Assembly (NCBI RefSeq): GCF_988242995.1
Contig: NZ_OZ547043.1
DNA length: 64,000 nucleotides
Strand: one strand, 5' to 3'
Position 1 is the stretch's first letter. Every line of letters begins with the position of its first letter. Shown here one piece after another: positions 12,164 to 49,136 of the stretch. The position numbers and the translations under genes are program-made. Under the pieces are notes generated by a model. It saw nothing but the letters and a program-made list of their open reading frames with translations, did no database searches and had not been told where the DNA came from.

Positions 12164-12209
12164 TCGTTTTTTCTTCGGCACCTTCTTCGGGAGGTGCCGT
12201 CTGGTTGTG

Positions 12210-12925
12210 CACAGAAAACCCCCAGCTAGGCTGGGGGTTCCGGAAAGCTTTCAGCTTTGAGCCAGTTATTAAAACCCCTTTTGATTTGTTAAAACACCTT
12301 GCGGTCTGGCAACTGCAAGTGTCAAACAAGAAATCAAAAGGGGGTCCCAATGGGGGACGAAAAGAGCTTAGCGCACACCCGCTGGAACTGTAAATATCAC
12401 ATAGTTTTTGCGCCGAAATACCGAAGACTGGCGTTTTACGGAGAGAAGCGTAGGGCGATAGGCAGTATTTTGAGAAAGCTGTGTGAGTGGAAAAGCGTAC
12501 GGATTCTGGAAGCAGAGTGCTGCGCAGATCATATCCATATGCTTGTGGAAATCCCACCCAAAATGAGCGTATCCGGCTTTATGGGATATCTGAAAGGGAA
12601 AAGCAGTCTGATGCTTTACGAGCAGTTTGGGGATTTGAAATTCAAATACAGAAACAGGGAGTTCTGGTGCCGAGGGTACTATGTCGATACGGTGGGTAAG
12701 AACACGGCGAAGATACAGGACTACATAAAGCACCAGCTTGAAGAGGATAAAATGGGGGAGCAGTTATCGATTCCATATCCGGGCGGCCCGTTTACGGGCC
12801 GTAAGTAACGAAGTTGAATGCAAATGTCAGATCGTATGCGCCTGTTAGGGCGCGGCTGGTAACAGAGCCTTACAGGCGCATTTGAAAAACCTCCGGCTAT
12901 GCCGGAGGATATTTATTAACAACTG
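12210..12925 (+). mobile_element. IS200-family (IS200/IS605) insertion sequence, ~0.7 kb (ends approximate)
   Basis: contains Y1 HUH transposase gene; subterminal hairpins (CCCCCAGCTAGGCTGGGGG near left end; GCGCCTGTTAGGGCGCG and CCGGCTATGCCGG near right end) typical of IS200 ends. Confidence 0.65.
12350..12808 (+). CDS. tnpA: IS200-family transposase TnpA (Y1 HUH)
   Basis: 152 aa from MGDEKSLAHTRWNCKYHIVFAPKYRR...; HUH motif (HIHM) and catalytic Tyr region; the 169-aa track ORF has an N-terminal extension. Confidence 0.85.
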   Translation: MGDEKSLAHTRWNCKYHIVFAPKYRRLAFYGEKRRAIGSILRKLCEWKSVRILEAECCADHIHMLVEIPPKMSVSGFMGYLKGKSSLMLYEQFGDLKFKYRNREFWCRGYYVDTVGKNTAKIQDYIKHQLEEDKMGEQLSIPYPGGPFTGRK

Positions 12926-32525: not shown

Positions 32526-33191
32526 ATGCCTGGAACGGAAAAAATACCGCATATCAGTTTAACTATGAAGGTTGAGAACGACCTGAAACATCAGCTTAGT
32601 ATTGGCGCACTAAAACCTGGCGTACGCCTGATTACTAAAAATCTGGCGGAGCAATTAGGTATGAGTATTACACCCGTGCGTGAAGCATTATTACGTCTGG
32701 TTTCGGTGAATGCGCTTTCTGTCGCACCAGCGCAAGCATTTACAGTTCCGGAAGTGGGGAAACGTCAATTAGACGAAATCAATCGGATCCGCTACGAGCT
32801 GGAATTAATGGCAGTTACTCTGGCTGTTGAAAACCTCACCCCGCAAGACCTGGCGGAACTCGAGGAATTGCTCGAGAAATTACAGCAGGCGCAAGAAAAG
32901 GGCGACATGGAACAAATCATTAATGCGAACAGGCTATTTCGCTTAGCGATTTATCATCGTTCAAATATGCCCATCCTGTGTGAGATGATTGAGCAACTGT
33001 GGGTCAGGATGGGACCTGGTTTACATTATCTCTATGAAGCGATTAATCCAGCGGAATTACGGGAGCGTATAGAAAACTATCGTCTATTACTCGCCGCGTT
33101 AAAAGCAAAAGACAAAGAGGGATGCAGGCATTGTCTTGCTGAAATTATGCAACAAAATATTGCTATTTTATACCAGCAATACAATCGTTAA
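32526..33191 (+). CDS. mcbR: GntR/FadR-family transcriptional regulator McbR (YncC)
   Basis: 221 aa with N-terminal GntR HTH. Confidence 0.9.
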   Translation: MPGTEKIPHISLTMKVENDLKHQLSIGALKPGVRLITKNLAEQLGMSITPVREALLRLVSVNALSVAPAQAFTVPEVGKRQLDEINRIRYELELMAVTLAVENLTPQDLAELEELLEKLQQAQEKGDMEQIINANRLFRLAIYHRSNMPILCEMIEQLWVRMGPGLHYLYEAINPAELRERIENYRLLLAALKAKDKEGCRHCLAEIMQQNIAILYQQYNR

Positions 33192-33196
33192 ATTAA

Positions 33197-33218
33197 ATGC
33201 CCGGCAAATACCGGGCAT
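33197..33218. terminator. bidirectional terminator between convergent mcbR and yncD
   Basis: hairpin ATGCCCGG-CAAATA-CCGGGCAT. Confidence 0.6.
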
Positions 33219-33226
33219 CAAGGTAA

Positions 33227-35329
33227 TTACTCAAATCGCCACGCAATATTCATGCCGACACCATAATTTCGCCCGGGTGCAGGTTCGTAATATCGCCCGT
33301 TTGACTCATTGACAATGACAGAACCAACGTATTCTTTATCGAATAAATTATCGACACGACCAAATAAATCCACAGTTAAATTGTGGTAATTGTATTTATA
33401 CCCGGTGAATAAGCCGACGAGAGTATAAGACGGCGCTTTGGCCGTATTTTCATCATCTGCCATAATATCACCCATATAACGCGCTTCCGTGCCTGCATAC
33501 CAACCATCTTCCGGTACATAACCTATCGATGCAAAGCCCATATTACGGGCGATCCCTGGCATCCGATTACCGTTACAATCCTGTTCATTGCAAACATTGC
33601 TGCGATAGGTCGCATCGAGCCAGGTCCAGGACGCTTTTACACGAAAATCTCCCGCGAAACGTTGATCCCATGCCAGCTCAGCGCCTTGACGACGGGTCTT
33701 TCCGGCATTTTTGTAAGTCGTACGCCCACCGCTACTGCTATCGACAACAATTTCATCATCGGTGTCGGTCTGGAACAATGCGAGACTAAGCAGCCCATCA
33801 CCAATACGCGTTTTACTGCCGATCTCAATTGTATCGTTGGTGGATGGTTTTAAACCAAAGTTCATACCGCTTTGACCGTCAGCACGATAAGACAGCTCAT
33901 TAATCGTCGGCGTTTCAAAACCTCGCCCGGCTGCCAGATAGATATTCCAGGCATCGGTCATTGCATATTTTAACGAACCGGCAGGTAGCCATTTGTGATA
34001 ACTGGCATCACCGCTGTCATCGCCGTTACCCGGAGTAACGTAATGGTCGTTGGAATCAAACCACACGGAGCTGTAGCGCACGCCAGCATCCAGCGACAGT
34101 TTTTCGCTCAGCTGCCACTGCGTCTGTAAATAGGGATCGACGTTCCACATCAGATTGCGTTCGTCGCGGCGCAACTCACCTTTTTGCCCGTATTCCGGCA
34201 CGCCGCTATTCAGGCGGAAGTTATTGTAGCCTTTGCGATTTTCACTCATGTTTTCGTAGTTCAGGCCGGTAGTGAACGTGAGCGGAACGCCCAGCTCGCC
34301 ACGGTGTGTCCAGCGGCTGTCTATCCCCTGATAATGGCGTTGCAGAGTAATCACGCCGCCCGCATGCGACGGGTTAAGTTGTGGTGCCATCGGGATTGAC
34401 TGGTACTGGGTCGTTTCTCGCTCCCCGGCATACATCATCACACTCATATCATCTTGTGCGCTCAGGCTACGTTCATAGCGCAACCCAGCCTGAGTTTGCT
34501 TGATGGTTTTTCGCGTGTCGTACTGTTCAGCGCGTGGCGCTTGTTGCGGATTCGCCTTCCATTCTGCTTCGGTTAGCCCACCTGGGTCATCTGCTTTGAT
34601 ATCCACACTATTGAAAATCAGGCTTAATTTGCTGGCGTCATCAATGCGTACGCCCAGTTTGGCATTGGCTAAATTTTTCTGTGCGCCACTATGATCACGA
34701 TAGCCGTGGGTCGTAAAGCGCGTTGTTGAGACGGTGTAATCGACATCGCCAGGCTGAGTGCCGTCGCCCATTGCGCCTGTTGCTTTCAGCCCATAGCGCC
34801 AGCTGCCAAAACTGCCGTAGTAACTACTGGCTTCAATGGTTGGTGGCTGTTGTCCGGTCTGGGTGATGACATTCATTACACCGCCAGACGCGTTGCCATA
34901 CAGAGCAGAGAAGGGGCCGCGCAGCACTTCCACATTTTGTACACTGCTTAAATCGATGTTGGATGTTTGCCCTTGTCCGTCGGGCATGGTGGCGGGAATA
35001 CCGTCCACATACAGGCGAATACCACGAATTCCGTAAGTGGAGCGGGAGCCAAATCCGCGAATCGACAGCTGTAAATCTTGCGCATAGTTCTGCCGGTTTT
35101 GTACCTGCAAACCAGGCACGCCGGTCAGTGATTCAGACAAGTTAATGCGCGGTGTTGCCAGGCGCATCTCCTCGCCATTCACCACGCTTACTGCTGCTGG
35201 CGTATCCAGTTCTGAAACCACCTGCGGCGCGGCACTGACAATCATGGTCTGTTCATCAGCGGCAAAAACAACGGGGGAAAGGACAAGCAGTGCGGGCAAA
35301 ACGGTCTGTCGGACGGAAAAAATCTTCAT
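33227..35329 (-). CDS. yncD: TonB-dependent outer membrane receptor YncD
   Basis: native start at internal Met (MKIFSVRQTVLPALLVLSPVVFA..., 700 aa); TonB box region and C-terminal aromatic residue (…AWRFE). Confidence 0.9.
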   Translation of the reverse strand: MKIFSVRQTVLPALLVLSPVVFAADEQTMIVSAAPQVVSELDTPAAVSVVNGEEMRLATPRINLSESLTGVPGLQVQNRQNYAQDLQLSIRGFGSRSTYGIRGIRLYVDGIPATMPDGQGQTSNIDLSSVQNVEVLRGPFSALYGNASGGVMNVITQTGQQPPTIEASSYYGSFGSWRYGLKATGAMGDGTQPGDVDYTVSTTRFTTHGYRDHSGAQKNLANAKLGVRIDDASKLSLIFNSVDIKADDPGGLTEAEWKANPQQAPRAEQYDTRKTIKQTQAGLRYERSLSAQDDMSVMMYAGERETTQYQSIPMAPQLNPSHAGGVITLQRHYQGIDSRWTHRGELGVPLTFTTGLNYENMSENRKGYNNFRLNSGVPEYGQKGELRRDERNLMWNVDPYLQTQWQLSEKLSLDAGVRYSSVWFDSNDHYVTPGNGDDSGDASYHKWLPAGSLKYAMTDAWNIYLAAGRGFETPTINELSYRADGQSGMNFGLKPSTNDTIEIGSKTRIGDGLLSLALFQTDTDDEIVVDSSSGGRTTYKNAGKTRRQGAELAWDQRFAGDFRVKASWTWLDATYRSNVCNEQDCNGNRMPGIARNMGFASIGYVPEDGWYAGTEARYMGDIMADDENTAKAPSYTLVGLFTGYKYNYHNLTVDLFGRVDNLFDKEYVGSVIVNESNGRYYEPAPGRNYGVGMNIAWRFE

Positions 35330-35570
35330 GAAAAAAGCCAGGTTAAGAATGGGAAAACGCCGCCATGGTAATAAAATTGTAAATTTATGGAAAACGAAAC
35401 GGCACGATACGTTAAGTAATTGAGAAAATTGTAGTCGTAACGGCAAGAAATGCTCCACATTTGAGAAAATAATGATTACCATTCCCATTTATAACAAGGG
35501 CGTAACGATGATTACGCTTAGCGAAGCATTGTGATGCAGCAAAAATATCGGTTCATCAAAGGGAGTCGTC

Positions 35571-36632
35571 ATGCATTTACGTCATCTGTTTTCATCGCGC
35601 CTGCGTGGTTCATTACTGTTAGGTTCATTGCTTGTTGCTTCATCATTCAGTACGCAGGCCGCAGAAGAAATGCTGCGTAAAGCGGTAGGTAAAGGTGCCT
35701 ACGAAATGGCTTATAGCCAGCAAGAAAACGCGCTGTGGCTCGCCACTTCGCAAAGCCGCAAACTGGATAAAGGCGGCGTGGTTTATCGTCTTGATCCGGT
35801 TACTCTGGAAGTGACGCAGGCGATCCATAACGATCTCAAGCCGTTTGGTGCTACCATCAACAACACGACTCAGACGTTGTGGTTTGGTAACACTGTAAAC
35901 AGCGCGGTCACGGCGATAGATGCCAAAACGGGCGAAGTGAAAGGCCGTCTGGTGCTGGATGATCGTAAGCGCACGGAAGAGGTGCGCCCGCTGCAACCGC
36001 GTGAGCTGGTGGCAGACGATGCCACGAACACCGTTTACATCAGTGGTATTGGTAAAGAGAGCGTGATTTGGGTCGTTGATGGCGAGAATATCAAACTGAA
36101 AACCGCCATCCAGAACACCGGTAAAATGAGTACCGGTTTAGCGCTGGATAGCAAAGGCAAACGTCTTTACACCACTAACGCTGACGGCGAATTGATTACC
36201 ATCGACACCGCCGACAATAAAATCCTCAGCCGTAAAAAGCTGCTGGATGACGACAAAGAGCACTTCTTTATCAACATCAGCCTTGATACCGCCAGGCAGC
36301 GTGCATTCATCACCGACTCTAAAGCGGCAGAAGTGTTAGTGGTCGATACCCGTAATGGCAATATTCTGGCGAAGGTTGCGGCACCGGAATCACTGGCTGT
36401 GCTGTTTAACCCCGCGCGTAATGAAGCCTACGTAACGCATCGTCAGGCAGGTAAAGTCAGTGTGATTGACGCGAAAAGCTATAAAGTGGTGAAAACGTTC
36501 GATACGCCGACTCATCCGAACAGCCTGGCGCTGTCTGCCGATGGCAAAACGCTGTATGTCAGTGTGAAACAAAAATCCACTAAACAGCAGGAAGCTACCC
36601 AGCCGGACGATGTGATTCGTATTGCGCTGTAA
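35571..36632 (+). CDS. yncE: beta-propeller (PQQ/YVTN-like repeat) periplasmic protein YncE
   Basis: 353 aa with signal peptide; recognised as YncE. Confidence 0.9.
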   Translation: MHLRHLFSSRLRGSLLLGSLLVASSFSTQAAEEMLRKAVGKGAYEMAYSQQENALWLATSQSRKLDKGGVVYRLDPVTLEVTQAIHNDLKPFGATINNTTQTLWFGNTVNSAVTAIDAKTGEVKGRLVLDDRKRTEEVRPLQPRELVADDATNTVYISGIGKESVIWVVDGENIKLKTAIQNTGKMSTGLALDSKGKRLYTTNADGELITIDTADNKILSRKKLLDDDKEHFFINISLDTARQRAFITDSKAAEVLVVDTRNGNILAKVAAPESLAVLFNPARNEAYVTHRQAGKVSVIDAKSYKVVKTFDTPTHPNSLALSADGKTLYVSVKQKSTKQQEATQPDDVIRIAL

Positions 36633-36714
36633 TAGATATGGCGAGGGTGAAAACGGAGAGACTTGCCTGACTTTTATCACGCCGTATCCGGTACCTTCGT
36701 CAGTAATTTGAATT

Positions 36715-36735
36715 TGCCCGGCACGTAGCCGGGCA
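36715..36735. terminator. hairpin between convergent yncE and ansP
   Basis: TGCCCGGC-ACGTA-GCCGGGCA followed by ATTTTG. Confidence 0.4.
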
Positions 36736-36744
36736 ATTTTGCAA

Positions 36745-38244
36745 TTAACTCGCCGTTTCAGGCTTAAACACAATTTCCTGTTGTTCTTCATCTTTCTCGA
36801 CGACTGGCGCAGTGCTGTGAATTTCAGCAACGCGTTTGCGCACACCAAACCAGCCTATAACCAGCAGAATACCGATAATCGGCAGCGCCGCGATAGTATA
36901 AGTCCCGTTCGGGTAATCGAACGCCATCAGCACAAGGACACTCAGTAAAAACAGTAATGTCAGCCAGGAAGTGAAGGGCGCGCCAGGCAGTTTAAAACTG
37001 ACATCCGCTGCTTTGCCTTCTTTAATCGCTTTACGCAGGCGCATCTGGCACACGATGATAAACGCCCATGAAGCGATGATTCCCAGCGACGCGAAGTTCA
37101 ACACAATCTCAAATACGCGCGACGGCACCAGATAGTTGAGGAATACGCCGACGACATACACAACCAGTGTCGCCAGAATCCCGGCATACGGCACATGCTG
37201 ACGACTCATTTTCGCCATAAAACTCGGTGCGGAACCGCCCATCGCCATTGAGCGCAGAATACGTCCGGTGCAGTACAGACCTGAGTTCAGGCTGGAGAGG
37301 GCAGCGGTCAGCACCACAATGTTCATAATGCTGCCGATGTACGGCACACCCAGTTTAGAGAAAAACGTCACGAACGGACTTTGCCCCGCCTGATACGCGC
37401 TCCACGGCAATAACATAACCAGCAACACCACGGAGCCGACGTAAAACAGGCCAATACGCCAAATCACACTGTTAATCGCTTTAGGCACCATGGTCTGCGG
37501 ATCTTTACATTCTCCGGCAGCTGTACCCACCATTTCAATGGAGGCAAAAGCAAACACTACGCCCTGAATCAACACCAGCGCAGGTAGCAAACCGTGGGGG
37601 AAGAAGCCGCCGTTATCGGTAATTAAATGAAAGCCAGTGGTGTTGCCATCCAGCGGCTGACCACTACCGAGGAACACTGTACCCACGACCAAAAAGGTCA
37701 CAATGGCGAGCACTTTAATAAGCGCAAACCAGAACTCCATCTCGGCAAACCATTTCACACCAATCATATTCATGGTGCCAACGATGGTCAGCGCAGCGAG
37801 CGCAAAGACCCACTGCGGTACACCACCAAATGCGCCCCAGTAATGCATATACAGTGCAACGGCGGTAATATCGACAATCCCTGTCATCGCCCAGTTGATG
37901 AAGTACATCCAGCCAGCAACATAAGCGGCTTTCTCTCCTAAAAACTCACGGGCATAAGAGACAAAACTGCCACTGGAAGGGCGGTGTAACACCAGCTCAC
38001 CCAATGCACGCAGAATAAAAAATGAAAACAGGCCGCAGATTAAATAGACCAGTGCCAGTGCTGGCCCCGCCATTTGCAGTCGGGCTCCTGCACCTAAAAA
38101 CAAGCCGGTGCCAATCGCGCCGCCAATGGCGATCATCTGTACCTGGCGATTGCCCATCGCTTTGTGATACCCCTCTTCGTGGGCATTAAGCCAGCGGCGT
38201 TTCGCGGCGTGCTGATCTGAAGTGTCGGTGTCGTGTTTACTCAT
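36745..38244 (-). CDS. ansP: L-asparagine permease (APC family)
   Basis: native start at internal Met (MSKHDTDTSDQHAAKRRWLNAHEEGYHKAMGNRQVQMIAIGGAIGTGLF..., 499 aa). Confidence 0.9.
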   Translation of the reverse strand: MSKHDTDTSDQHAAKRRWLNAHEEGYHKAMGNRQVQMIAIGGAIGTGLFLGAGARLQMAGPALALVYLICGLFSFFILRALGELVLHRPSSGSFVSYAREFLGEKAAYVAGWMYFINWAMTGIVDITAVALYMHYWGAFGGVPQWVFALAALTIVGTMNMIGVKWFAEMEFWFALIKVLAIVTFLVVGTVFLGSGQPLDGNTTGFHLITDNGGFFPHGLLPALVLIQGVVFAFASIEMVGTAAGECKDPQTMVPKAINSVIWRIGLFYVGSVVLLVMLLPWSAYQAGQSPFVTFFSKLGVPYIGSIMNIVVLTAALSSLNSGLYCTGRILRSMAMGGSAPSFMAKMSRQHVPYAGILATLVVYVVGVFLNYLVPSRVFEIVLNFASLGIIASWAFIIVCQMRLRKAIKEGKAADVSFKLPGAPFTSWLTLLFLLSVLVLMAFDYPNGTYTIAALPIIGILLVIGWFGVRKRVAEIHSTAPVVEKDEEQQEIVFKPETAS

Positions 38245-38509
38245 TGCTCTCCCTGATTGCTTTAATGAAAAAGTCATATAAGTTGCCATGAACAATGTTT
38301 ATTCATCCTGGCGATGATAGTTATCACCATTATTCTTTATGGGTATAAAACTATCGGCGCAGCATCCTACCTGTTATCGATAAACGATGCAAAACATCCC
38401 CTTACAATCCTGATGGGGATTTATACAACTGACAAAAAAATGACCATCCTTTTGCAGGTTAACCTGTGTGCTGTCTTACACTTAATCTTTAAAGGATTGT
38501 GAGGGGCAT

Positions 38510-39109
38510 ATGATTAAGGTGTATGGCGTACCCGGATGGGGCTCTACAATCAGTGAGCTGATGCTAACACTGGCTGATATCCCTTATCAGTTCGTTGGTG
38601 TCAGTGGTTTTGACCACGAGGGAACTTCACGCGAGTTATTGAAAACCCTGAACCCGTTGTGTCAGGTTCCGACACTGGCGCTGGAAAATGACGAGATTAT
38701 GACGGAGACAGCGGCGATTGCATTGATGGTTCTCGATCGTCGCCCGGACCTTGCGCCACCGCTTGGGCGCGCCGAACGTCAGCAGTTTCAACGGCTATTG
38801 GTCTGGCTGGTTGCTAATGTCTATCCAACGTTCACTTTCGCCGATTACCCTGAGCTTTGGGCTCCTGACGCGCCTGAACAGTTAAAGAAGAATGTTATTG
38901 AATATCGTTTTATATCTGGTTGAATTCGCAGCTCACTGCTGAACCTTATGCGTTTGGCGATCAGCTACCCTTATCTCTGCGTTATGCGCATATGGGGACC
39001 GGGGCATGAATGGTTTCAAGATAATGCCGCGAATATCAGTGCGATTGCTGATGCTGTATGTCCGATACCAACGTTACAAGAAATACTAAAAAGGAATGCC
39101 ATTATTTAA
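38510..39109 (+). pseudogene. yncG: glutathione S-transferase-like gene yncG, disrupted by frameshifts
   Basis: N-terminal GST-like ORF ends prematurely at 38923 (137 aa); downstream sequence continues GST-like in two other frames (…YIWLNSQLTAEPYAFGDQL… then …YLCVMRIWGPGHEWFQDNAANISAIADAVC…), implying at least two indels. Confidence 0.7.
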
Positions 39110-39329
39110 CAATAATGCCGGAGATTAATGTTAATAAATCACTGGCGTAGTTAACTGGACATCCATTTGTTTGCTATGAATGGTAATTAAAGTTGGTACA
39201 ATTATTTATATGATTTATGTAATCTCGTTTTTTATATGAAATATCAATTTAATATAATCCGAAAATAAAACATCCTTTCGCATGTAGAGAAATATGTCGA
39301 TATGATAGCGCCGTGCAGATCATGTTATC

Positions 39330-40685
39330 AGGGCAGAGCGGTAGCGTATCAGGGAAAAAGCATGAAAGCCCGCGCCCCACAAGACTTTGGTGAATGATGA
39401 ATTTTTAAATCGCGACATTACTTTTATCGTAAAACCCATCATGTTGATCTTTTTTTTCGATCAATTTGACCATCTTATTTCAGTGTGATCTTATCCTTTC
39501 TTTTTGATGGATAGCACACCATGAACGGACTAAGCCTTTTGGATCAAATTTCAATTATTCACGATTATCGCCAGTCCTGGAAAACCAGTTACAGCCTGGC
39601 GGATATCCTTTTTCTGACGATCACCGCCATTATCGGTGGCGCTGAAGGATGGGAAGAAATTGCTGATTTTGGTGAGGAGCATCTGGAATGGTTACGCCTG
39701 TATGGTGATTTTGAAAATGGCACCCCCTCCCATCACACGATTGCCCGAGTGATGGGAATGATTTCAGCAAAACAATTACAGCCCCTTTTTATCCAGTAGA
39801 TGAAGGACTGTCACACGTTGTCTGAAGGCTCTGTTGTGGCGATTGATGGTAAGTCATTACGGGGTACTTACGATAAATCGAAACGTAATGCCGTGATCCA
39901 TAGGGTCAGTGCTTTTAGCGCAGAAAATCGTCTGGTTTTGGGGCAGGTGAAAACAGGGGCAAAATCGAATGAGATAACGGCGATCCCGGAACGGCTCCAG
40001 TTGCTGGAATTAAAAGGGTGTCTGGTCACGCTGGATGCAATGGGTTGCCAGCATATAATCGCCCGTGAAATTCTGAAAAAGAAAGCCGGTTACCTGCTGG
40101 CGCTGAAAGGAAATCAGGGAAAATTAGCGGAGGCGTTTGATAACGGGTACTCGCCGACAATGTGGCTGGGTGAGAGGTATGACAGTTACAGCACGCAGGA
40201 AAAAGGGCATGGACGGGAAGATACACGATGCTGCATTGTGAGCCATGATTTAACCGCTCTGGGTGATTTAGCTTATGAATGGTCAGAGCTGAGCACGATA
40301 GGAATAGTGCTGGCGAGCAGACAGGAAGGAGAAACAGCGGTGAAATCAGAGAAGTGTATTCTTCGCTACTACATAAGTTCGGTGACGCTTACGGCGAAAG
40401 AACTCCTGGAAGCAACACGAGCACACTGGTCGGTAGAAAATCAACTGCACTGGCGACTTGATATGGGGATGCGGGAAGATGAATGCCAGATTGTTCGTGG
40501 AGAAGCGGGAGAAAATCTGGCAGTTTGTCGACATATCGCGATGAATTTACTGACCGCAGAGAATAGCTTTAAAGCGGGTATTAAACGCAAGCAAAAGCGG
40601 GCAGGACGTAAGAATGAATACCTTTCTCTAATCCTTGCTGGCTGCGGGCCTTCATGATTTCGCCCTGCGGTTAGAGGTTAATTAT
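39330..40685 (+). mobile_element. H-repeat (ISAs1-family) element, copy 1 (ends approximate)
   Basis: ~100-bp conserved upstream block (ATGAAAGCCCGCGCCCCACAAG...CATCATGTTG) shared with the second copy at ~46100; transposase-like ORF; similar sequence just after both stop codons. Confidence 0.6.
39521..40657 (+). pseudogene. H-repeat-associated (ISAs1-family) transposase interrupted by in-frame amber codon
   Basis: 92-aa and 285-aa ORFs are in the same frame, separated only by TAG at 39797-39799; combined 378 codons, same length as the intact paralog at 46358..47494. Confidence 0.75.
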
Positions 40686-41078
40686 GCTCCTGGTATGCAT
40701 GGTAAATTGATTTTGTGTTTCTCATGGTATGCTGTTAATTATAAGAGATGATTGTTTTTAAGGTTGATTAATATGTAATTCATATTTGTCATGCGACATA
40801 AAGTAATCGATTTTTTTTGTTGTGGCTTTAATTGATGGTTCTAAGGTATGCAGTTTGAGAACGTTCAGTGAATGATGTATATACAATAATAAATAATATT
40901 TGCAATAAATTTGTGTGGGTGGTTATTTTTATATTTCATTGGTACGGGATTTTACGGTTAATTAGTGAAGAGGACTTCGCTAATTTATATAGATTATTCG
41001 GGGAAATCTTATTCACTGGTTATGAATCAGTATGGATTGCACTCAGAATAAAACCATAAATAATTTAAGGAATAAACC

Positions 41079-44000
41079 ATGAGCGGAAAACCGGCGGCGC
41101 GACAGGGCGATATGACCCGCAAGGGACTGGATATTGTGCAGGGTTCAGCGGGGGTGCTGATAGGTGCGCCGACGGGAGTGGCCTGCTCGGTGTGTCCCAA
41201 CAGCCCGGTGGAGGAGCAGAAGGGTAACCCGGTGAACCCGCTACTGGGTGCGAAGGTGCTGCCGGGCGAGACGGATCTTGCGCTGCCCGGCCCGTTGCCG
41301 TTTATTCTTTCCCGCGCCTACAGCAGCTACCGGACCAGGACACCCGCGCCGGTGGGGGTGTTTGGTCCCGGCTGGAAAGCGCCCTTCGATATCCGCTTAC
41401 AGGTTCATGAGCGGGAACTGATACTCAACGACAGTGGCGGCAGGAGCATTCACTTTGAGCCGCTGTTTCCCGGCGAGATAAGCTACAGCCGCAGCGAGTC
41501 GTTCTGGCTGGCAAGGGGCGGGGTGGCGGAGCAGCACAGTTCGCAGCCGCTAAGCGCGCTCTGGCAGGTGCTGCCGGAGAGTCTCCGCTTAAGCCCGCAT
41601 GTGTACCTGGCGACAAACAGCCTTCAGGGGCCGTGGTGGATACTCGGCTGGCCGGAGCGGGTACCGGAGGCGGACGAGGTGCTGCCGCCGGAGCCGCCCG
41701 CATACCGGGTGCTGACGGGCGTGGTGGACGGCTTCGGGCGGACGCTGGCCTTCCACCGGGCGGCAGAGGGGGAAGCGGCGGGCGCGGTGACGGGGGTGAC
41801 GGACGGCGCGGGCCGCCGTTTTCATCTGGCGCTGACCACACAGGCGCAGCGGGCGAAAGCCTTCCGTAAACAGCGCGAGTCTTCTTTATCTTCTCCGGCC
41901 AGTCCCCGTTCTGTTTCCTCTTCTCAGTTTTTCCCCGACACGCTGCCCACCGGTACAGAGTACGGTGCCGATAACGGTATCCGGCTGGAGGCGGTATGGC
42001 TGACACACGACCCGGCATACCCGGATGAACTGCCGACTGCGCCGCTGGCGCGCTACACGTACACGGCCAGCGGAGAACTGCGGGCGGTGTATGACCGCAG
42101 CGGTACGCAGGTGCGCGGGTTTACTTATGATGCGGAGCACGCCGGGCGGATGGTGGCGCACCATTATGCGGGGAGGCCGGAGAGCCGCTACCGGTATGAT
42201 GATACCGGTCGGGTGACGGAGCAGGTCAACCCGGAGGGGCTGGACTACCGCTTTGAGTACGGGCAGGACCGCGTGACCATCACGGACAGCCTGAACCGGC
42301 GGGAGGTGCTGTACACGGAGGGCGAGGGCGGCCTGAAGCGGGTGGTGAAGAAGGAGTATGGGGACGGGAGCATCACCCGCAGCGAGTATGATGAGGCGGG
42401 GAGGCTGAAGGCGCAGACGGATGCGGCGGGACGGCGGACGGAGTACCGGCTGCATATGGCGTCGGGAAAGCTGACTTCAGTGATACTGCCGGACGGCAGG
42501 ACGGTACGGTATGGTTACAACAACCAGTTGCAACTGACGTCAGTGACGTACCCGGACGGGCTGCGCCGCAGCCGGAAATATGACCGTCAGGGCAGGCTGG
42601 CGGAAGAGGTCTCGCGCAACGGTAACATTACGCGCTGGTTTTATGATTCTTCCCGCAGTGGCCTGCCCTGTGCGGTGGAAGACGGAACCGGGGTGAGGCG
42701 GAGAATAACGCGAAACCGGTACGGTCAGCTTCAGGCATTTACGGACTGTTCAGGGTACACGACGCGGTATGAATACGACCGGTACGGTCAGAGGACGGCG
42801 GTTCACCGGGAGGAAGGCATCAGCACTTACAGCAGTTATAACCCGCGTGGTCAACTGGTCAGTCAGAAGGATGCGCAGGGACGTGAAACCCGTTATGAGT
42901 ACAGCGCCGCAGGCGACCTCACCGCTATCATTGCCCCGAACGGCAGCCGGAGTGAGACACAGTATGATGCGTGGGGAAAGGCCGTCAGCACCACGCAGGG
43001 CGGACTGACGCGCAGCATGGAGTATGACGCCGCCGGGAGCATCACCGTGCTGACCAACGAGAACGGCAGCCAGTCCACGTTCCGGTATGACCCGGTGGAC
43101 AGGCTGACGGAGCAGCGCGGCTTTGACGGCAGGACACAGCGTTACCGGTACAGCGCCACAGGGCAGCTCATCCGCAGCGAGGATGAGGGGCAGGTCACGC
43201 AGTGGTACTACGATGACGCCGGGCGCATCACGCACCGGACGGTGAACGGCGACCCGGCGGAGCAGTGGCAGTATGACGACCACGGCTGGCTGACAGAAAT
43301 CAGCCACCTGAGCGAAGGCCACCGTGTGGCGGTCCACTACGGCTATGACGATAAAGGCCGCCTGACGGGCGAACGGCAGACGGTGGAGAACCAGGAGACG
43401 GGGGAGATGCTGTGGGAGCATGAGACGAGGCACGTCTACAGCGAACAGGGGCTGGCGACCCGTCAGGAGCCGGACGGTCTGCCGCCGGTGGAGTGGCTGA
43501 CGTATGGCAGCGGTTATCTTGCGGGGATGAAGCTGGGCGGAACGCCGCTGGTCGAGTACACGCGGGACCGGCTGCACCGTGAGACGGCCCGCAGCTTCGG
43601 CGGGGCGGGCAGTACAGCGGGGTACGAACAGGCCACGGCGTACACCCTCACAGGGCAGCTCCGGAGCAGGCACCTGAACCTTCCGCAGCTTGACCGTGAG
43701 TATACGTGGAACGATAACGGGCAACTGGTGCGCATCAGCGGCCCGCAGGAGAGCCGGAAGTACCGTTACAGCGACACGGGAAGACTGACGGGCGTTCACA
43801 CCACGGCGGCGAACCTGGATATCGATATCCCGTATGCGACGGACCCGGCAGGAAACCGGCTGCCGGACCCGGAACTGCACCCGGACAGCACCTTCACGGC
43901 GTGGCCGGATAACCGCATCACGGAAGATGCGCACTATGTCTACCGCTACGATGAATACGGCAGGCTGGCGGAGAAGACGGACCGTATCCCGGAAGGGGTG

Positions 44001-45290
44001 ATACGGATGCACGACGAGCGGACGCACCACTACCATTACGACAGCCAGCACCGCCTGGTGTTCTACACGCGGATACAGCACGGCGAGCCACAGGTGGAGA
44101 GCCGCTACCTCTATGACCCGCTGGGCCGCCGGACGGGGAAACGGGTGTGGCGGCGGGAGCGTGACCTGACGGGGTGGATGTCGCTGTCGCGTAAACCGGA
44201 GGAGACCTGGTACGGGTGGGACGGTGACAGGCTGACGACGGTACAGACCGGCACCACGCGTATCCAGACGGTATACCAGCCGGGGAGCTTCACGCCGCTC
44301 ATCAGAATCGAAACAGAGAATGGTGAACAGGCGAAGGCGCGGCACCGGAGTCTGGCGGAGGTGTTGCAGGAGGACACGGGGGTGACGCTACCGGCGGAGC
44401 TGTCGGTGATGCTGGGGAGGCTGGAGCGGGAACTGCGCGCGGGTGCGGTGAGTGCGGAGAGTGAGGCATGGCTTCAGCAGTGCGGGCTGACGGCGGAACA
44501 GATGAAAAACCAGATGGAGGCGGAATACATCCCGGAGAGGACACTTCATCTTTACCACTGCGACCACCGGGGGCTGCCGCAGGCGCTCATCAGCCCGGAA
44601 GGGGAAACGGCGTGGCAGGGGGAGTATGACGAGTGGGGAAACCTGCTGGGCGAAACCAGCGCGCAGCAACTGCAACAGCCGTACCGTCTGCCGGGGCAGC
44701 AGTATGATGAGGAGTCGGGGCTGTACTATAACCGCAACCGGTACTATGACCCGTTGCAGGGGCGGTATATCACCCAGGATCCCATTGGGCTAAGAGGTGC
44801 ATGGAACCTGTATCAGTATCCATTGAATCCAACTACTAAGATAGATCCGTTGGGTCTCTCCGGAGAAGATTCCATAGAGCAGTCAGGTCCATCTTGGTTG
44901 ATTGCTGACCCCATGGATAAATACAGACAACAGGCAGTGATGGGTTTAACAAAATTGTGGGATGATACCTTTAGTCAAGAGAAGACTAAATGTTTACCTA
45001 CGACACCTGAAAACATCAGGATGGTTGTGGCCAACAGTCCCTTGTTGACAGTACAACAAAAAGTCTCAGTACCCGTAGTAGCTCACTACGTACAAATGCT
45101 GGAAGATGGTAGTGGAGCACCACCGGTTGATATGGATGGGAATGTGATTGTTAATGGTAATCACAGGATGGTTGCGGGTCTGTTATGTGATAAACTTCCT
45201 CCTGAGCGGCCAGGTACGCGTCCATTATCGGCACCACTATATCCGTTTAGCCAAATTTTTCCGGAGTTAGATGATTGGGGGAATAGATGA
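41079..45290 (+). CDS. Rhs-family polymorphic toxin, full length (PAAR-like N-terminus, YD-repeat shell, DPxGL boundary, variable C-terminal toxin tip)
   Basis: 1403 aa; N-terminus [12 protein letters not shown]...GVACSVCPN; many YD repeats; conserved core end ...[33 protein letters not shown] (ends 44858); GC-rich core, AT-rich tip after 44858. Confidence 0.95.
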
Positions 45291-45772
45291 TAAGAATCGC
45301 GTTTTTAATAACCAATAAATTTCTTGATATAGATAGTACCACTCTTGCTGGATATGATTTTAGCGGGATGGATCTACATCGTGCCATCCTCAATGGTTAT
45401 TGTCTTGATGGGGCGAAATTTGAAAATTCCCATTTAAGAAATGTAATGATTCAACATACATCAACTAGAAATGCTGTCTTTCGCAATGCGGCTCTGATGA
45501 ACGCTATTCTTAATAACTCAGATTTCACTGGAAGTGACTTTAGTAATTCAAGGTCAATAGGTGCAAACTTTGAGGGTGCTATATTAACTAATTCAACCTT
45601 TTGCAATGCAGACGTTAAAGATTCAAATTTTTCTGGTGCTGACTTATGTGGCGCTAATTTATTATGTGATAGATATGGCGATATAAATATAACAGGTGCA
45701 TTATTCGATAAAAACACCTCATGGTTAGAAGGTTTTGATCCTATAGCTCATGGGGCTATATTAAAAATATGA
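45287..45772 (+). CDS. pentapeptide-repeat protein, putative cognate immunity protein of the Rhs C-terminal toxin
   Basis: 161 aa; start overlaps rhs stop (ATGA); consecutive A(D/N)(L/F)xx pentapeptides ([40 protein letters not shown]...); AT-rich like the toxin tip. Confidence 0.8.
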
Positions 45773-46064
45773 CAAGGATCATAACTCATTATTTTCTGTG
45801 TCAGTAACACTGATGTGGAAAGTAGACTTACTTGCAATAGCCACCGGGATCTGCTGTTGAAAGCCGATCCCAAACAACCCCGGTTGCTGTGGTAAAGAGT
45901 CATAGTAGCGAGCGCAGGGGGAGTGCTCAGATTATATGAGATACAGTGAAATGAATAAACCCGAACCTGTGTTGACGTGTCGTTAGTCCTAAGCGGCATC
46001 AGAACCGGAGGTTTCGTGATACCGCCGTGATAAATTTACGGGTGAATTCCGAATGCTACGTAAA

Positions 46065-47520
46065 GGGTGTCCGGCGTATAGCAGACATCAGGATAAAAGT
46101 ATGAAAGCCCACGCCCCACAAGGCTTTACCGGATGATGAGTTTTTAAACTACGACATTACTTTTACAGTAAAATCCATCATGTTGGTATTTTCTCTCGAA
46201 CAATTTGACGATCCACGGAAAGATCACGTAACGCTGCTTTTTTGTACTAGACAATTCGCATTTTATGTTTAACAATTGAGATATTCCTCATTACCTGAAG
46301 CTGTTTTTTATTGCGTATACATGATCAAATACTCCTTACATAATTAAGGAGAACAAAATGGAACTTAAAAAATTGATGGAACATATTTCTATTATCCCCG
46401 ATTACAGACAAGCCTGGAAAGTGGAACATAAATTTTCGGATATTCTACTGTTGACTATTTGTGCCGTTATTTCGGGTGCAGAAGGCTGGGAAGATATAGA
46501 GGATTTTGGGGAAACACATCTCGATTTTTTGAAGCAATATGGTGATTTTGATAATGGTATTCCTGTTCACGATACCATTGCCAGAGTTGTATCCTGTATC
46601 AGTCCTGCAAAATTTCACGAGTGCTTTATTAACTGGATGCGTGACTGCCATTCTTCAGATGATAAAGACGTCATCGCAATTGATGGAAAAACACTCCGGC
46701 ATTCTTATGACAAGAGTCGCCGCAAGGGAGCGATTCATGTCATTAGTGCGTTCTCAACAATGCACAGTCTGGTTATCGGACAGATCAGGACGGATGAGAA
46801 ATCCAATGAGATTACAGCTATTCCAGAACTTCTTAACATGCTGGATATTAAAGGAAAAATCATCACAACTGATGCGATGGGTTGCCAGAAAGATATTGCA
46901 GAGAAGATACAAAAACAGGGCGGTGATTATTTATTCGCTGTAAAAGGAAACCAGGGGCGGCTAAATAAAGCCTTCGAGGAAAAATTTCCGCTGAAAGAAT
47001 TAAATAATCCAGAGCATGACAGTTACGCAATTAGTGAAAAGAGTCACGGCAGAGAAGAAATCCGTCTTCACATTGTTTGCGATGTCCCTGATGAACTTAT
47101 TGATTTCACGTTTGAATGGAAAGGTCTGAAGAAATTATGCGTGGCAGTCTCCTTTCGGTCAATAATAGCAGAACAAAAGAAAGAGCCAGAAATGACGGTC
47201 AGATATTATATCAGTTCTGCTGATTTAACCGCAGAGAAGTTCGCCACAGCAATCCGAAACCACTGGCACGTGGAGAATAAGCTGCACTGGCGTCTGGACG
47301 TGGTAATGAATGAAGACGACTGCAAAATAAGAAGAGGAAATGCAGCAGAATTATTTTCAGGGATACGGCACATGGCTATTAATATTTTAACGAATGATAA
47401 GATATTTAAGGCAGGGTTAAGACGTAAGATGCGAAAAGCAGCCATGGACAGAAACTACCTGGCGTCAGTCCTTGCTGGGTGCGGGCTTTCGTAATCTTGC
47501 CCTGCGCCAAAGATTCCATA
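46065..47520 (+). mobile_element. H-repeat (ISAs1-family) element, copy 2 (ends approximate)
   Basis: conserved upstream block homologous to copy 1; intact transposase ORF. Confidence 0.6.
46358..47494 (+). CDS. ydcC: H-repeat-associated (ISAs1-family) transposase, intact (YdcC-like)
   Basis: 378 aa; [52 protein letters not shown]...; clearly related to but diverged from the copy at 39521..40657. Confidence 0.85.
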
Positions 47521-47539
47521 TAATAATATTAAGGTTGTT

Positions 47540-48175
47540 ATGAATAAAGGTAATAGATTACAACAGTTAGAAGATGCGTGTCGTGATATTATTAAAATTA
47601 ACATGTGGTATGAACTCCCCGATTATGTATTTTTTTCAATATCTGACACCATCGATGGGACGAGTGATGAATTTGCAATAAATGTGTATAAAAATATCGA
47701 TAAAAGTCTTCTTGAAATATTATTGCATCCATCTGTTTTACTGTCAGTTGTTGAGTCCTTACAAAGTAATACTATAGCTGAGTATATCGTGAAATTGTCT
47801 GGAATAGAGATGAATTATGACGACTTGCTAATATCGGATGTTAAGTCATGTCTTTTTATCAACTATGGATTCAATAACAGTGAATCGGTTGCGCTATTTA
47901 ATAAGATTTGCCGCGAATTAAAAGACATTGTAAAATCATCAAGAGTACATATAGATCATGAGAAAGATATTTTTGATGGCCTTAATCAAATCTTGGCTTT
48001 TTCCGATAATAATAAACGTGAGTATTTTTTATATATAAAGGCATATTGGCTCAGTTTATACTTTTGTGAAATTTCACAGAACGTGAGAGAAAGAGATAAG
48101 TTGTCATTTTATTATAATGAATTTTCTGTCCGATTTCCTAATGTTGTCCTATATCCGTCATGCTACAAATTGTAA
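47540..48175 (+). CDS. hypothetical protein (211 aa), AT-rich, no TM segments
   Basis: ORF track; AAGG 7 nt upstream of ATG; very low GC; no recognisable family. Confidence 0.5.
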   Translation: MNKGNRLQQLEDACRDIIKINMWYELPDYVFFSISDTIDGTSDEFAINVYKNIDKSLLEILLHPSVLLSVVESLQSNTIAEYIVKLSGIEMNYDDLLISDVKSCLFINYGFNNSESVALFNKICRELKDIVKSSRVHIDHEKDIFDGLNQILAFSDNNKREYFLYIKAYWLSLYFCEISQNVRERDKLSFYYNEFSVRFPNVVLYPSCYKL

Positions 48176-48566
48176 GGCTTGGCACCTGAAATTCATTGTT
48201 AATTCGAGACGCTTGATTGTCCACTATATCAAAACAGTCATACCTCGGAATTTCTCACATTAGTCCATACGGTATTCAATTTTCGCAACTGTGCCCTGAA
48301 ATAAAAAACTGCAAAACTGCTTTTTCTTGACCTGTCCCAATCACGCAAGACTACTTTTAGTAGAGACCTCCAGCCATATCGATTTTAGTGCCGCCCGCGC
48401 ATTTTATACAAAACAGGGCTTTATCAATGAAGCTATAATACGCAATTACTATGATGTTGGTGAGGATAAATTAATCTTCACTAAAAATATGCAATCGTGA
48501 GATAAAATATGCTTTTAACTCATATTGAAACATTGCTTACGCAACTTCGTTGCTGCATATGATTCT

Positions 48567-49136
48567 TTAGCCAGCGGTAATACGCTTGCCGCTGGTAACA
48601 AACGTGCCAGCACCTAAATGATGCAACGTATTGAGTTTGTCATCATCAAACTGCCAGCGGCCTTCGACAAATACTCGTGCGTCTGCCGCTGCTGATACTA
48701 CCTCGCCAAACAGTGTGTCGTATTTTTCTTGCGCAGAAGTCGCAGGTAGCAGGCGACACTCCATCCACGCCAGACATTTTTCCTCGACCAGCGGCAAACC
48801 AAGCACCGGGCCTCTCACTACCGGAATGCCGTAGCAATTAAATTTATCTTCTTCACGCCCCGACACACTTCCCACCGCCCACGTCCAGTTAGTTGCTGCA
48901 ACACCCGGGATAACGATGCCAAACTTACCATTACGTTCAATCAACTCCCTGGTCCATGTCGATTTATCTACCACAATCGCCACGCGTGGCGGTTCAAACT
49001 CCACCGGCATTGACCAGGCTGCTGCCATAATGTTACGCCGCTGGGATTGCTCATCGAAACTGGTGATCATGACAGTTGGGCCATGATTTAACAGACGGCT
49101 GGCATGGTGTAATTCGACGGGAATGAATTGGCTCAC
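48567..49136 (-). CDS. yddH: flavin reductase-like (FMN-binding split-barrel) protein YddH
   Basis: 189 aa; recognised as YddH. Confidence 0.85.
   Translation of the reverse strand: MSQFIPVELHHASRLLNHGPTVMITSFDEQSQRRNIMAAAWSMPVEFEPPRVAIVVDKSTWTRELIERNGKFGIVIPGVAATNWTWAVGSVSGREEDKFNCYGIPVVRGPVLGLPLVEEKCLAWMECRLLPATSAQEKYDTLFGEVVSAAADARVFVEGRWQFDDDKLNTLHHLGAGTFVTSGKRITAG

Follow-up and report, generated by a model that had tools for sequence, protein, structure and literature searches.

The segment between positions 38510 and 39109 of the window, i.e. the whole stretch of 64,000 nucleotides analyzed here, carries on its plus strand the orthologue of E. coli yncG in its usual position between ansP and an Rhs island. 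We conclude with high confidence that this copy of the GST-like gene is a non-functional pseudogene that was inactivated in two steps. In the older step, which is shared with other genomes, an allele whose 3′ third belongs to an ISAs1/Rhs haplotype lost 11 bp, which shifted the reading frame, removed the N-capping box of helix α6 and left a product of 168 aa. In the recent, lineage-specific step, a further 7 bp were deleted between ATCG repeats 63 bp upstream of the 11-bp site, most likely by replication slippage. The frame was thereby shifted earlier and runs into the stop codon TGA at 38921 after 137 aa, such that at most a 137-aa fragment can still be made.

The yncG locus and its two deletions

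The gene order pqqU-yncE-ansP-yncG-island found in the window is the same as that around yncG in complete E. coli genomes. Nucleotide homology spans the full length of the gene, with a mean column identity of 96% over the 680 columns of the orthologue alignment. Since the flanking genes pqqU, yncE and ansP are the same and the nucleotide homology is full-length, the identification of yncG is secure. Judged against intact orthologues, the gene extends from the ATG at 38510 to the TAA at 39107-39109. Of 5426 complete E. coli genomes, 4616 gave a yncG match in a megablast search with positions 38400-39250 as query. The gene yncH is absent from the window; in K-12-type genomes, homology to the window stops at the yncG stop codon, where yncH comes next. 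In the literature, yncG has been named as the gene that borders an Rhs locus on its left (PMC2935791). A first reading made from the sequence only, hereafter the sequence-only reading, had described gene decay where the Rhs island begins, at its edge, and this description is supported by the layout of the locus: yncG lies between ansP and an ISAs1 pseudogene followed by an Rhs core gene (Table 1), the same layout is present in E. coli NRZ14408, where RefSeq marks yncG as 'frameshifted', and the 3′ third of the gene belongs to the variable-island haplotype.

Table 1. Coordinates of yncG segments and neighboring features in the window
Feature	Position	Strand	Remarks
ansP	36745-38295	-	divergently oriented, upstream of yncG; yncE and pqqU further upstream
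yncG 5′ remnant ORF, 137 aa	38510-38923	+	from ORF list and translation; carries the GST N-terminal (thioredoxin-like) domain
yncG middle segment	38904-38966	+	codons 134-155 of intact yncG (...SFYIWLNSQLTAEPYAFGDQL); readable only in the -1 frame
yncG 3′ segment, last 47 codons and TAA	38967-39109	+	same frame as the N-terminus
ISAs1-family (H-repeat) transposase pseudogene	39521-40657	+	start of the Rhs island; downstream of yncG
Rhs core gene, 1403 aa	41079-45290	+	part of the island unit 41079-45772 whose edge crosses yncG
Pentapeptide-repeat ORF, 161 aa	45287-45772	+	4-nt overlap with the Rhs stop; immunity-gene position

Lesions were called by comparison with the intact 618-nt yncG genes of strain C, O145:H28 RM13514 and TUM1886, to which NRZ14408 was added as the closest relative. 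The sequence-only reading had stated that yncG is broken by at least two frameshifts and had proposed an alignment with an intact yncG as a check. This alignment reveals exactly two, namely a 7-bp and an 11-bp deletion, which account for the entire difference in length from the intact genes. At the first site, ATCGAAA is missing between 38903 and 38904, amid 4-bp ATCG direct repeats: where the intact genes read GAAT-ATCG(A/T/C)AA-ATCG-TTT, the plus strand of the window reads GAAT-ATCG-TTT (GAATATCG for the site 38900-38907), one ATCG repeat having been lost together with the spacer. Direct repeats of this kind are the usual signature of replication slippage, which is most likely how the 7-bp deletion arose. 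At the second site, AACGCTGGTGG is missing between 38966 and 38967; the microhomology here amounts to just 1 bp, and no clear repeat signature was found at this deletion. Putting the 18 nt back in silico results in one clean ORF of 205 aa, and the gene therefore contains no further disabling lesions.

The two deletions divide the gene into segments that are read in two frames. The 5′ remnant ORF comprises 131 native codons, 6 out-of-frame codons (RFISG) and then the TGA at 38921-38923, which is met in the shifted frame between both deletions. The N-terminal GST-like frame thus encodes 137 aa and ends at 38923, the end point that the sequence-only reading had noted, and translation of the -1 frame agrees with its statement that GST-like sequence continues there (the stretch ...YIWLNSQLTAEPYAFGDQL... 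reads on in the -1/+2 frame). Its assignment of the C-terminal part to a third frame has to be corrected, the stretches ...CVMRIWGPGHEWFQDNAANISAIADAVC... and PYLCVMRIWGPGHEWFQDNAANISAIADAVCPIPTLQEILKRNAII being translated in the original N-terminal frame. The tail is back in this frame because the deletions add up to 18 nt (7 + 11), and its regained phase is irrelevant because of the intervening TGA. Hence, yncG in the window combines frame-breaking lesions relative to intact orthologues with a premature stop, as is characteristic of a frameshifted pseudogene, and does not contain a single ORF of about 205 aa with a complete C-terminal α-helical domain, the sequence for α6 to α8 lying beyond the stop.

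The intergenic region between ansP and yncG (38296-38509) shows about 11 differences from NRZ14408, all of which are common to CP057479.1. Among these is G38494, which stands upstream of the purine-rich GAGGGG (38501-38506) just 5′ of the yncG start. No promoter-like site on the yncG side of this intergenic region passed a simple scan.

Predicted consequences for the YncG protein

The N-terminal domain of YncG scores above the Pfam cut-offs for GST_N_2 (32.8 bits, cut-off 25), GST_N_3 (30 bits, cut-off 22) and GST_N (22.5 bits, cut-off 20.9), and among solved structures the best relatives of the intact protein are two beta-class GSTs, 1pmt (E = 3e-13) and 1a0f (E = 3e-11). The residues L155-T156-L157-V158-D159-C160 of YncG align with F151-T152-V153-A154-D155-A156 of the Proteus mirabilis GST 1pmt, a motif that comprises the hydrophobic staple and the N-capping box (S/T-x-x-D) at the start of helix α6. 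Both elements are critical for GST folding and stability, including those of the P. mirabilis enzyme (PMC3319563). The 11-bp deletion deletes T156, L157 and V158 and breaks D159, so that the window allele does not possess an N-capping box. Because of this loss, the older 168-aa allele was almost certainly dead already. In contrast to the beta-class enzymes (P. mirabilis GSTB1-1, 1pmt; E. coli GST, 1a0f), the gene in the window therefore has this motif deleted and everything from α6 onward untranslated, its product stopping at about the end of α5. The resulting 137-aa fragment, consisting of the thioredoxin-like domain and helices α4 and α5 without α6 to α8, would not be expected to fold into a working GST, and the truncation together with the lost N-capping box suggests that YncG function has been lost.

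The 5′ part of the window-type allele carries three non-synonymous changes (D30G, I53V and R116L) and two synonymous ones; for intact alleles, the differences likewise number about 4 non-synonymous against 3 synonymous. The gene may be under relaxed selection, the counts being too small to demonstrate this.

It could be argued that selection maintains the 137-aa ORF because its N-terminal (thioredoxin-like) GST domain functions as a protein in its own right, a proposal that we consider very unlikely. The start codon and the upstream purine-rich GAGGGG are intact, the N-terminal domain still exceeds the Pfam cut-offs and truncated YncG forms are common in E. coli. However, the truncation points vary by lineage (137, 138 and 168 aa, and others), as random decay predicts, and D30G, I53V and R116L change residues within the domain of the window-type allele. 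Moreover, GST folding relies on C-terminal core motifs (PMC3319563) and RefSeq treats such loci as pseudogenes. An equally slim chance attaches to the wider proposal that the 137-, 138- and 168-aa fragments of different lineages represent a repeatedly selected stand-alone thioredoxin-like protein and not debris. If this were true, E. coli would be making a shorter redox protein out of a GST-like gene beside a toxin island.

Order, origin and reality of the deletions at the island edge

The distribution of each deletion was determined with queries spanning its junction. The 11-bp junction, searched for with a 53-nt query able to seed only across the junction, was found in 143 of the 5426 complete E. 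coli genomes, and in all three of these that were opened RefSeq annotates a pseudogene ("frameshifted"). The 7-bp junction (50-nt query) was found in 0 of the 5426 genomes, and an exact scan of the GTDB species-representative genomes likewise gave no match to it. The predicted intermediate, which combines the 5′ substitutions of the window with only the 11-bp deletion and encodes 168 aa, is on record exactly. This allele without the 7-bp deletion occurs in the complete chromosome CP057479.1 and in four other contigs, and CP057479.1 and its relatives are identical to the window from 38111 to 39580 except for the 7 bp. Since the 11-bp deletion is shared and is also found in an allele that has kept the 7 bp, it is the earlier of the two events and the 7-bp deletion the later one. 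The 7-bp deletion is the most recent, lineage-specific lesion and the 11-bp deletion the older, shared one. The window sequence is E. coli-like, its best identity to any complete E. coli genome being 98.9-99.1% over 5-20 kb.

The comparison of the window with NRZ14408 reveals 93 differences in 33191-38875 (1.6%) and only 6 in 38904-46380 (0.08%). The 3′ 284 nt (38967-39250) reach an identity of at least 99% in 143 genomes, exactly the number that carries the 11-bp junction, the next class showing 90-95%, and the yncG 3′ segment is 87.6% identical to that of K-12 over 137 aligned bases. The drop in divergence, the 3′ allele of the 143 genomes and the end of K-12 homology at the stop codon therefore indicate that the Rhs-island haplotype reaches into the last third of yncG. 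The divergent 3′ allele is always linked to the 11-bp deletion; no intact copy of it was found in the 5426 complete genomes, and the guessed intact 205-aa protein of the window-type allele is not on record. Recombination breakpoints cluster at the island edge, and the crossovers fall in the conserved 5′ part of yncG.

Ancestry around yncG is mosaic in both comparisons. The divergence from NRZ14408 falls within yncG, with the switch at 38876-38903, and CP057479.1 differs from the window by about 2% upstream of 38110, its stretch of identity (apart from the 7 bp) beginning at 38111.

The proximity of the 7-bp site to this switch bears on its origin. The 7-bp deletion might be the imprecise ATCG-microhomology junction of the very recombination that brought in the Rhs-island haplotype. 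In its favor, the switch from 1.6% to 0.08% divergence from NRZ14408 is located no more than 28 nt away from the deletion. In CP057479.1 and its relatives, however, the same 5′ allele is joined to the same 3′ haplotype and the 7 bp are still present. The recombination junction thus predates the deletion, as is evident from an intermediate allele that was first predicted and then found, and we rejected this origin as very unlikely.

We also considered programmed frameshifting or recoding, in which ribosomes would shift twice to produce a near full-length YncG. In its favor, the tail is in the original frame, the sizes of both shifts together being divisible by three. On the other hand, a second random indel regains phase by chance one third of the time, and the deletions relative to the intact orthologues, which are single-frame, account entirely for the frame changes. 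Moreover, an allele with just one of the deletions exists, and the in-phase product would still be without the N-capping box. No Rfam element was found in 36000-42000, and the locus does not show the combination of a conserved frame change with a slippery site and a stimulatory element that would be typical of programmed frameshifting. We hence regard recoding as scarcely credible.

Both deletions are reproduced independently of the assembly analyzed here and are not assembly errors. Exactly this 137-aa product is on record for 73 contigs (113 index blocks). Three independent matches, one NCBI assembly (GCA_013851005.1) and two Logan assemblies of separate runs (ERR15423959 and SRR13674913), show 0 mismatches to the window over 6.4, 4.6 and 4.1 kb, respectively. 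No homopolymer is present at either deletion. The homopolymer errors that the sequence-only reading had wished to exclude by resequencing are thus excluded by the multi-base nature of the deletions, by these three assemblies and by the presence of the 11-bp deletion in 143 complete genomes. As both deletions recur in independent assemblies, the frame will not be recovered by resequencing. That this assembly has introduced the indels into a gene that is in fact intact, for which nothing speaks beyond the general possibility raised by that reading, is practically out of the question in view of deletions of 7 and 11 bp in non-homopolymer sequence, mismatch-free matches over 4.1-6.4 kb from different runs, 73 contigs with the 137-aa product and 143 complete genomes with the 11-bp deletion.

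Several further features of the island and its IS elements were apparent. The ISAs1 transposase at 39521-40657 is split by an in-frame amber TAG (39797-39799) at a position that is W in the other copy, and the same 'internal stop' is annotated by RefSeq in NRZ14408 and Z142-4. The second ISAs1-family transposase (46358-47494) is intact with 378 aa. Since the nucleotide identity between the two copies is only about 55% and the protein identity 49%, they are different family members and not recent duplicates. The C-terminal 196 aa of the Rhs protein, a presumed toxin tip, have no Pfam match (region 44700-45772), and the adjoining pentapeptide-repeat ORF is, judged from its position, a putative Rhs immunity gene. 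On its right side (46909-48567), the island is without pptA, an alkyl/aryl-sulfatase gene and a GGDEF gene, all of which are present in NRZ14408; in their place is a 211-aa ORF (47540-48175) that has no Pfam match. The IS200-like element at 12205-12902 is 95.8% identical to IS200C of NRZ14408, which occupies a different locus there. Short-read contigs with the window yncG allele are about 26.7 kb long, with ends at 12890 and 39579, because of the IS200-like and ISAs1 copies.

Relation to known alleles and repeated loss of yncG

When compared to E. coli yncG (b1454), whose GST-like product is of uncertain activity, the gene in the window is found at the same locus, which follows ansP and forms the left edge of an rhsE-type island, and has the same start and stop positions. 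In contrast to b1454, it is without 18 nt in two blocks, has a stop after 137 aa and possesses a divergent 3′ end. Its 5′ 394 nt are 97.5-98.5% identical to four close yncG alleles and 95.7% identical to the AR_0017 allele. The 11-bp deletion and a 100% identical 3′ end are shared with NRZ14408 and 142 other complete genomes, and the NRZ14408-type yncG is also followed by the same ISAs1 pseudogene and Rhs core gene. Unlike this type, the window adds the 7-bp deletion and five 5′ substitutions (D30G, I53V, R116L and two synonymous ones).

yncG has also been inactivated independently in other lineages and has been lost repeatedly across E. coli. In Z142-4, the 11-bp allele has acquired an additional nonsense codon, and the AR_0017-type allele contains different frameshifts in 13 genomes. 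A 138-aa YncG variant that ends after codon 138 is present on 124 contigs, including Shigella boydii, and several further truncated forms are on record. In the megablast search with query 38400-39250, no yncG match was obtained in 810 of the 5426 complete E. coli genomes.

The loss described here is routine gene decay at a variable island edge and already known in kind, RefSeq recognizing such pseudogenes. For annotation, it means that the locus is a yncG pseudogene with two deletions and not a short 'GST N-terminal domain protein'. Both junction sequences could serve as lineage markers. The locus further provides a clean worked example of stepwise decay, in which an old 11-bp deletion was followed by a 7-bp deletion that probably arose by slippage, and shows a core gene with a 3′ end that moves together with the adjoining Rhs island. 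Over-expression of K-12 yncG raises the H2O2 MIC five-fold, and no GST activity of YncG was detected in a cell-free test (PMC8228696). That a gene which raises H2O2 tolerance when over-expressed is yet so often lost suggests that yncG is dispensable in many E. coli lineages.
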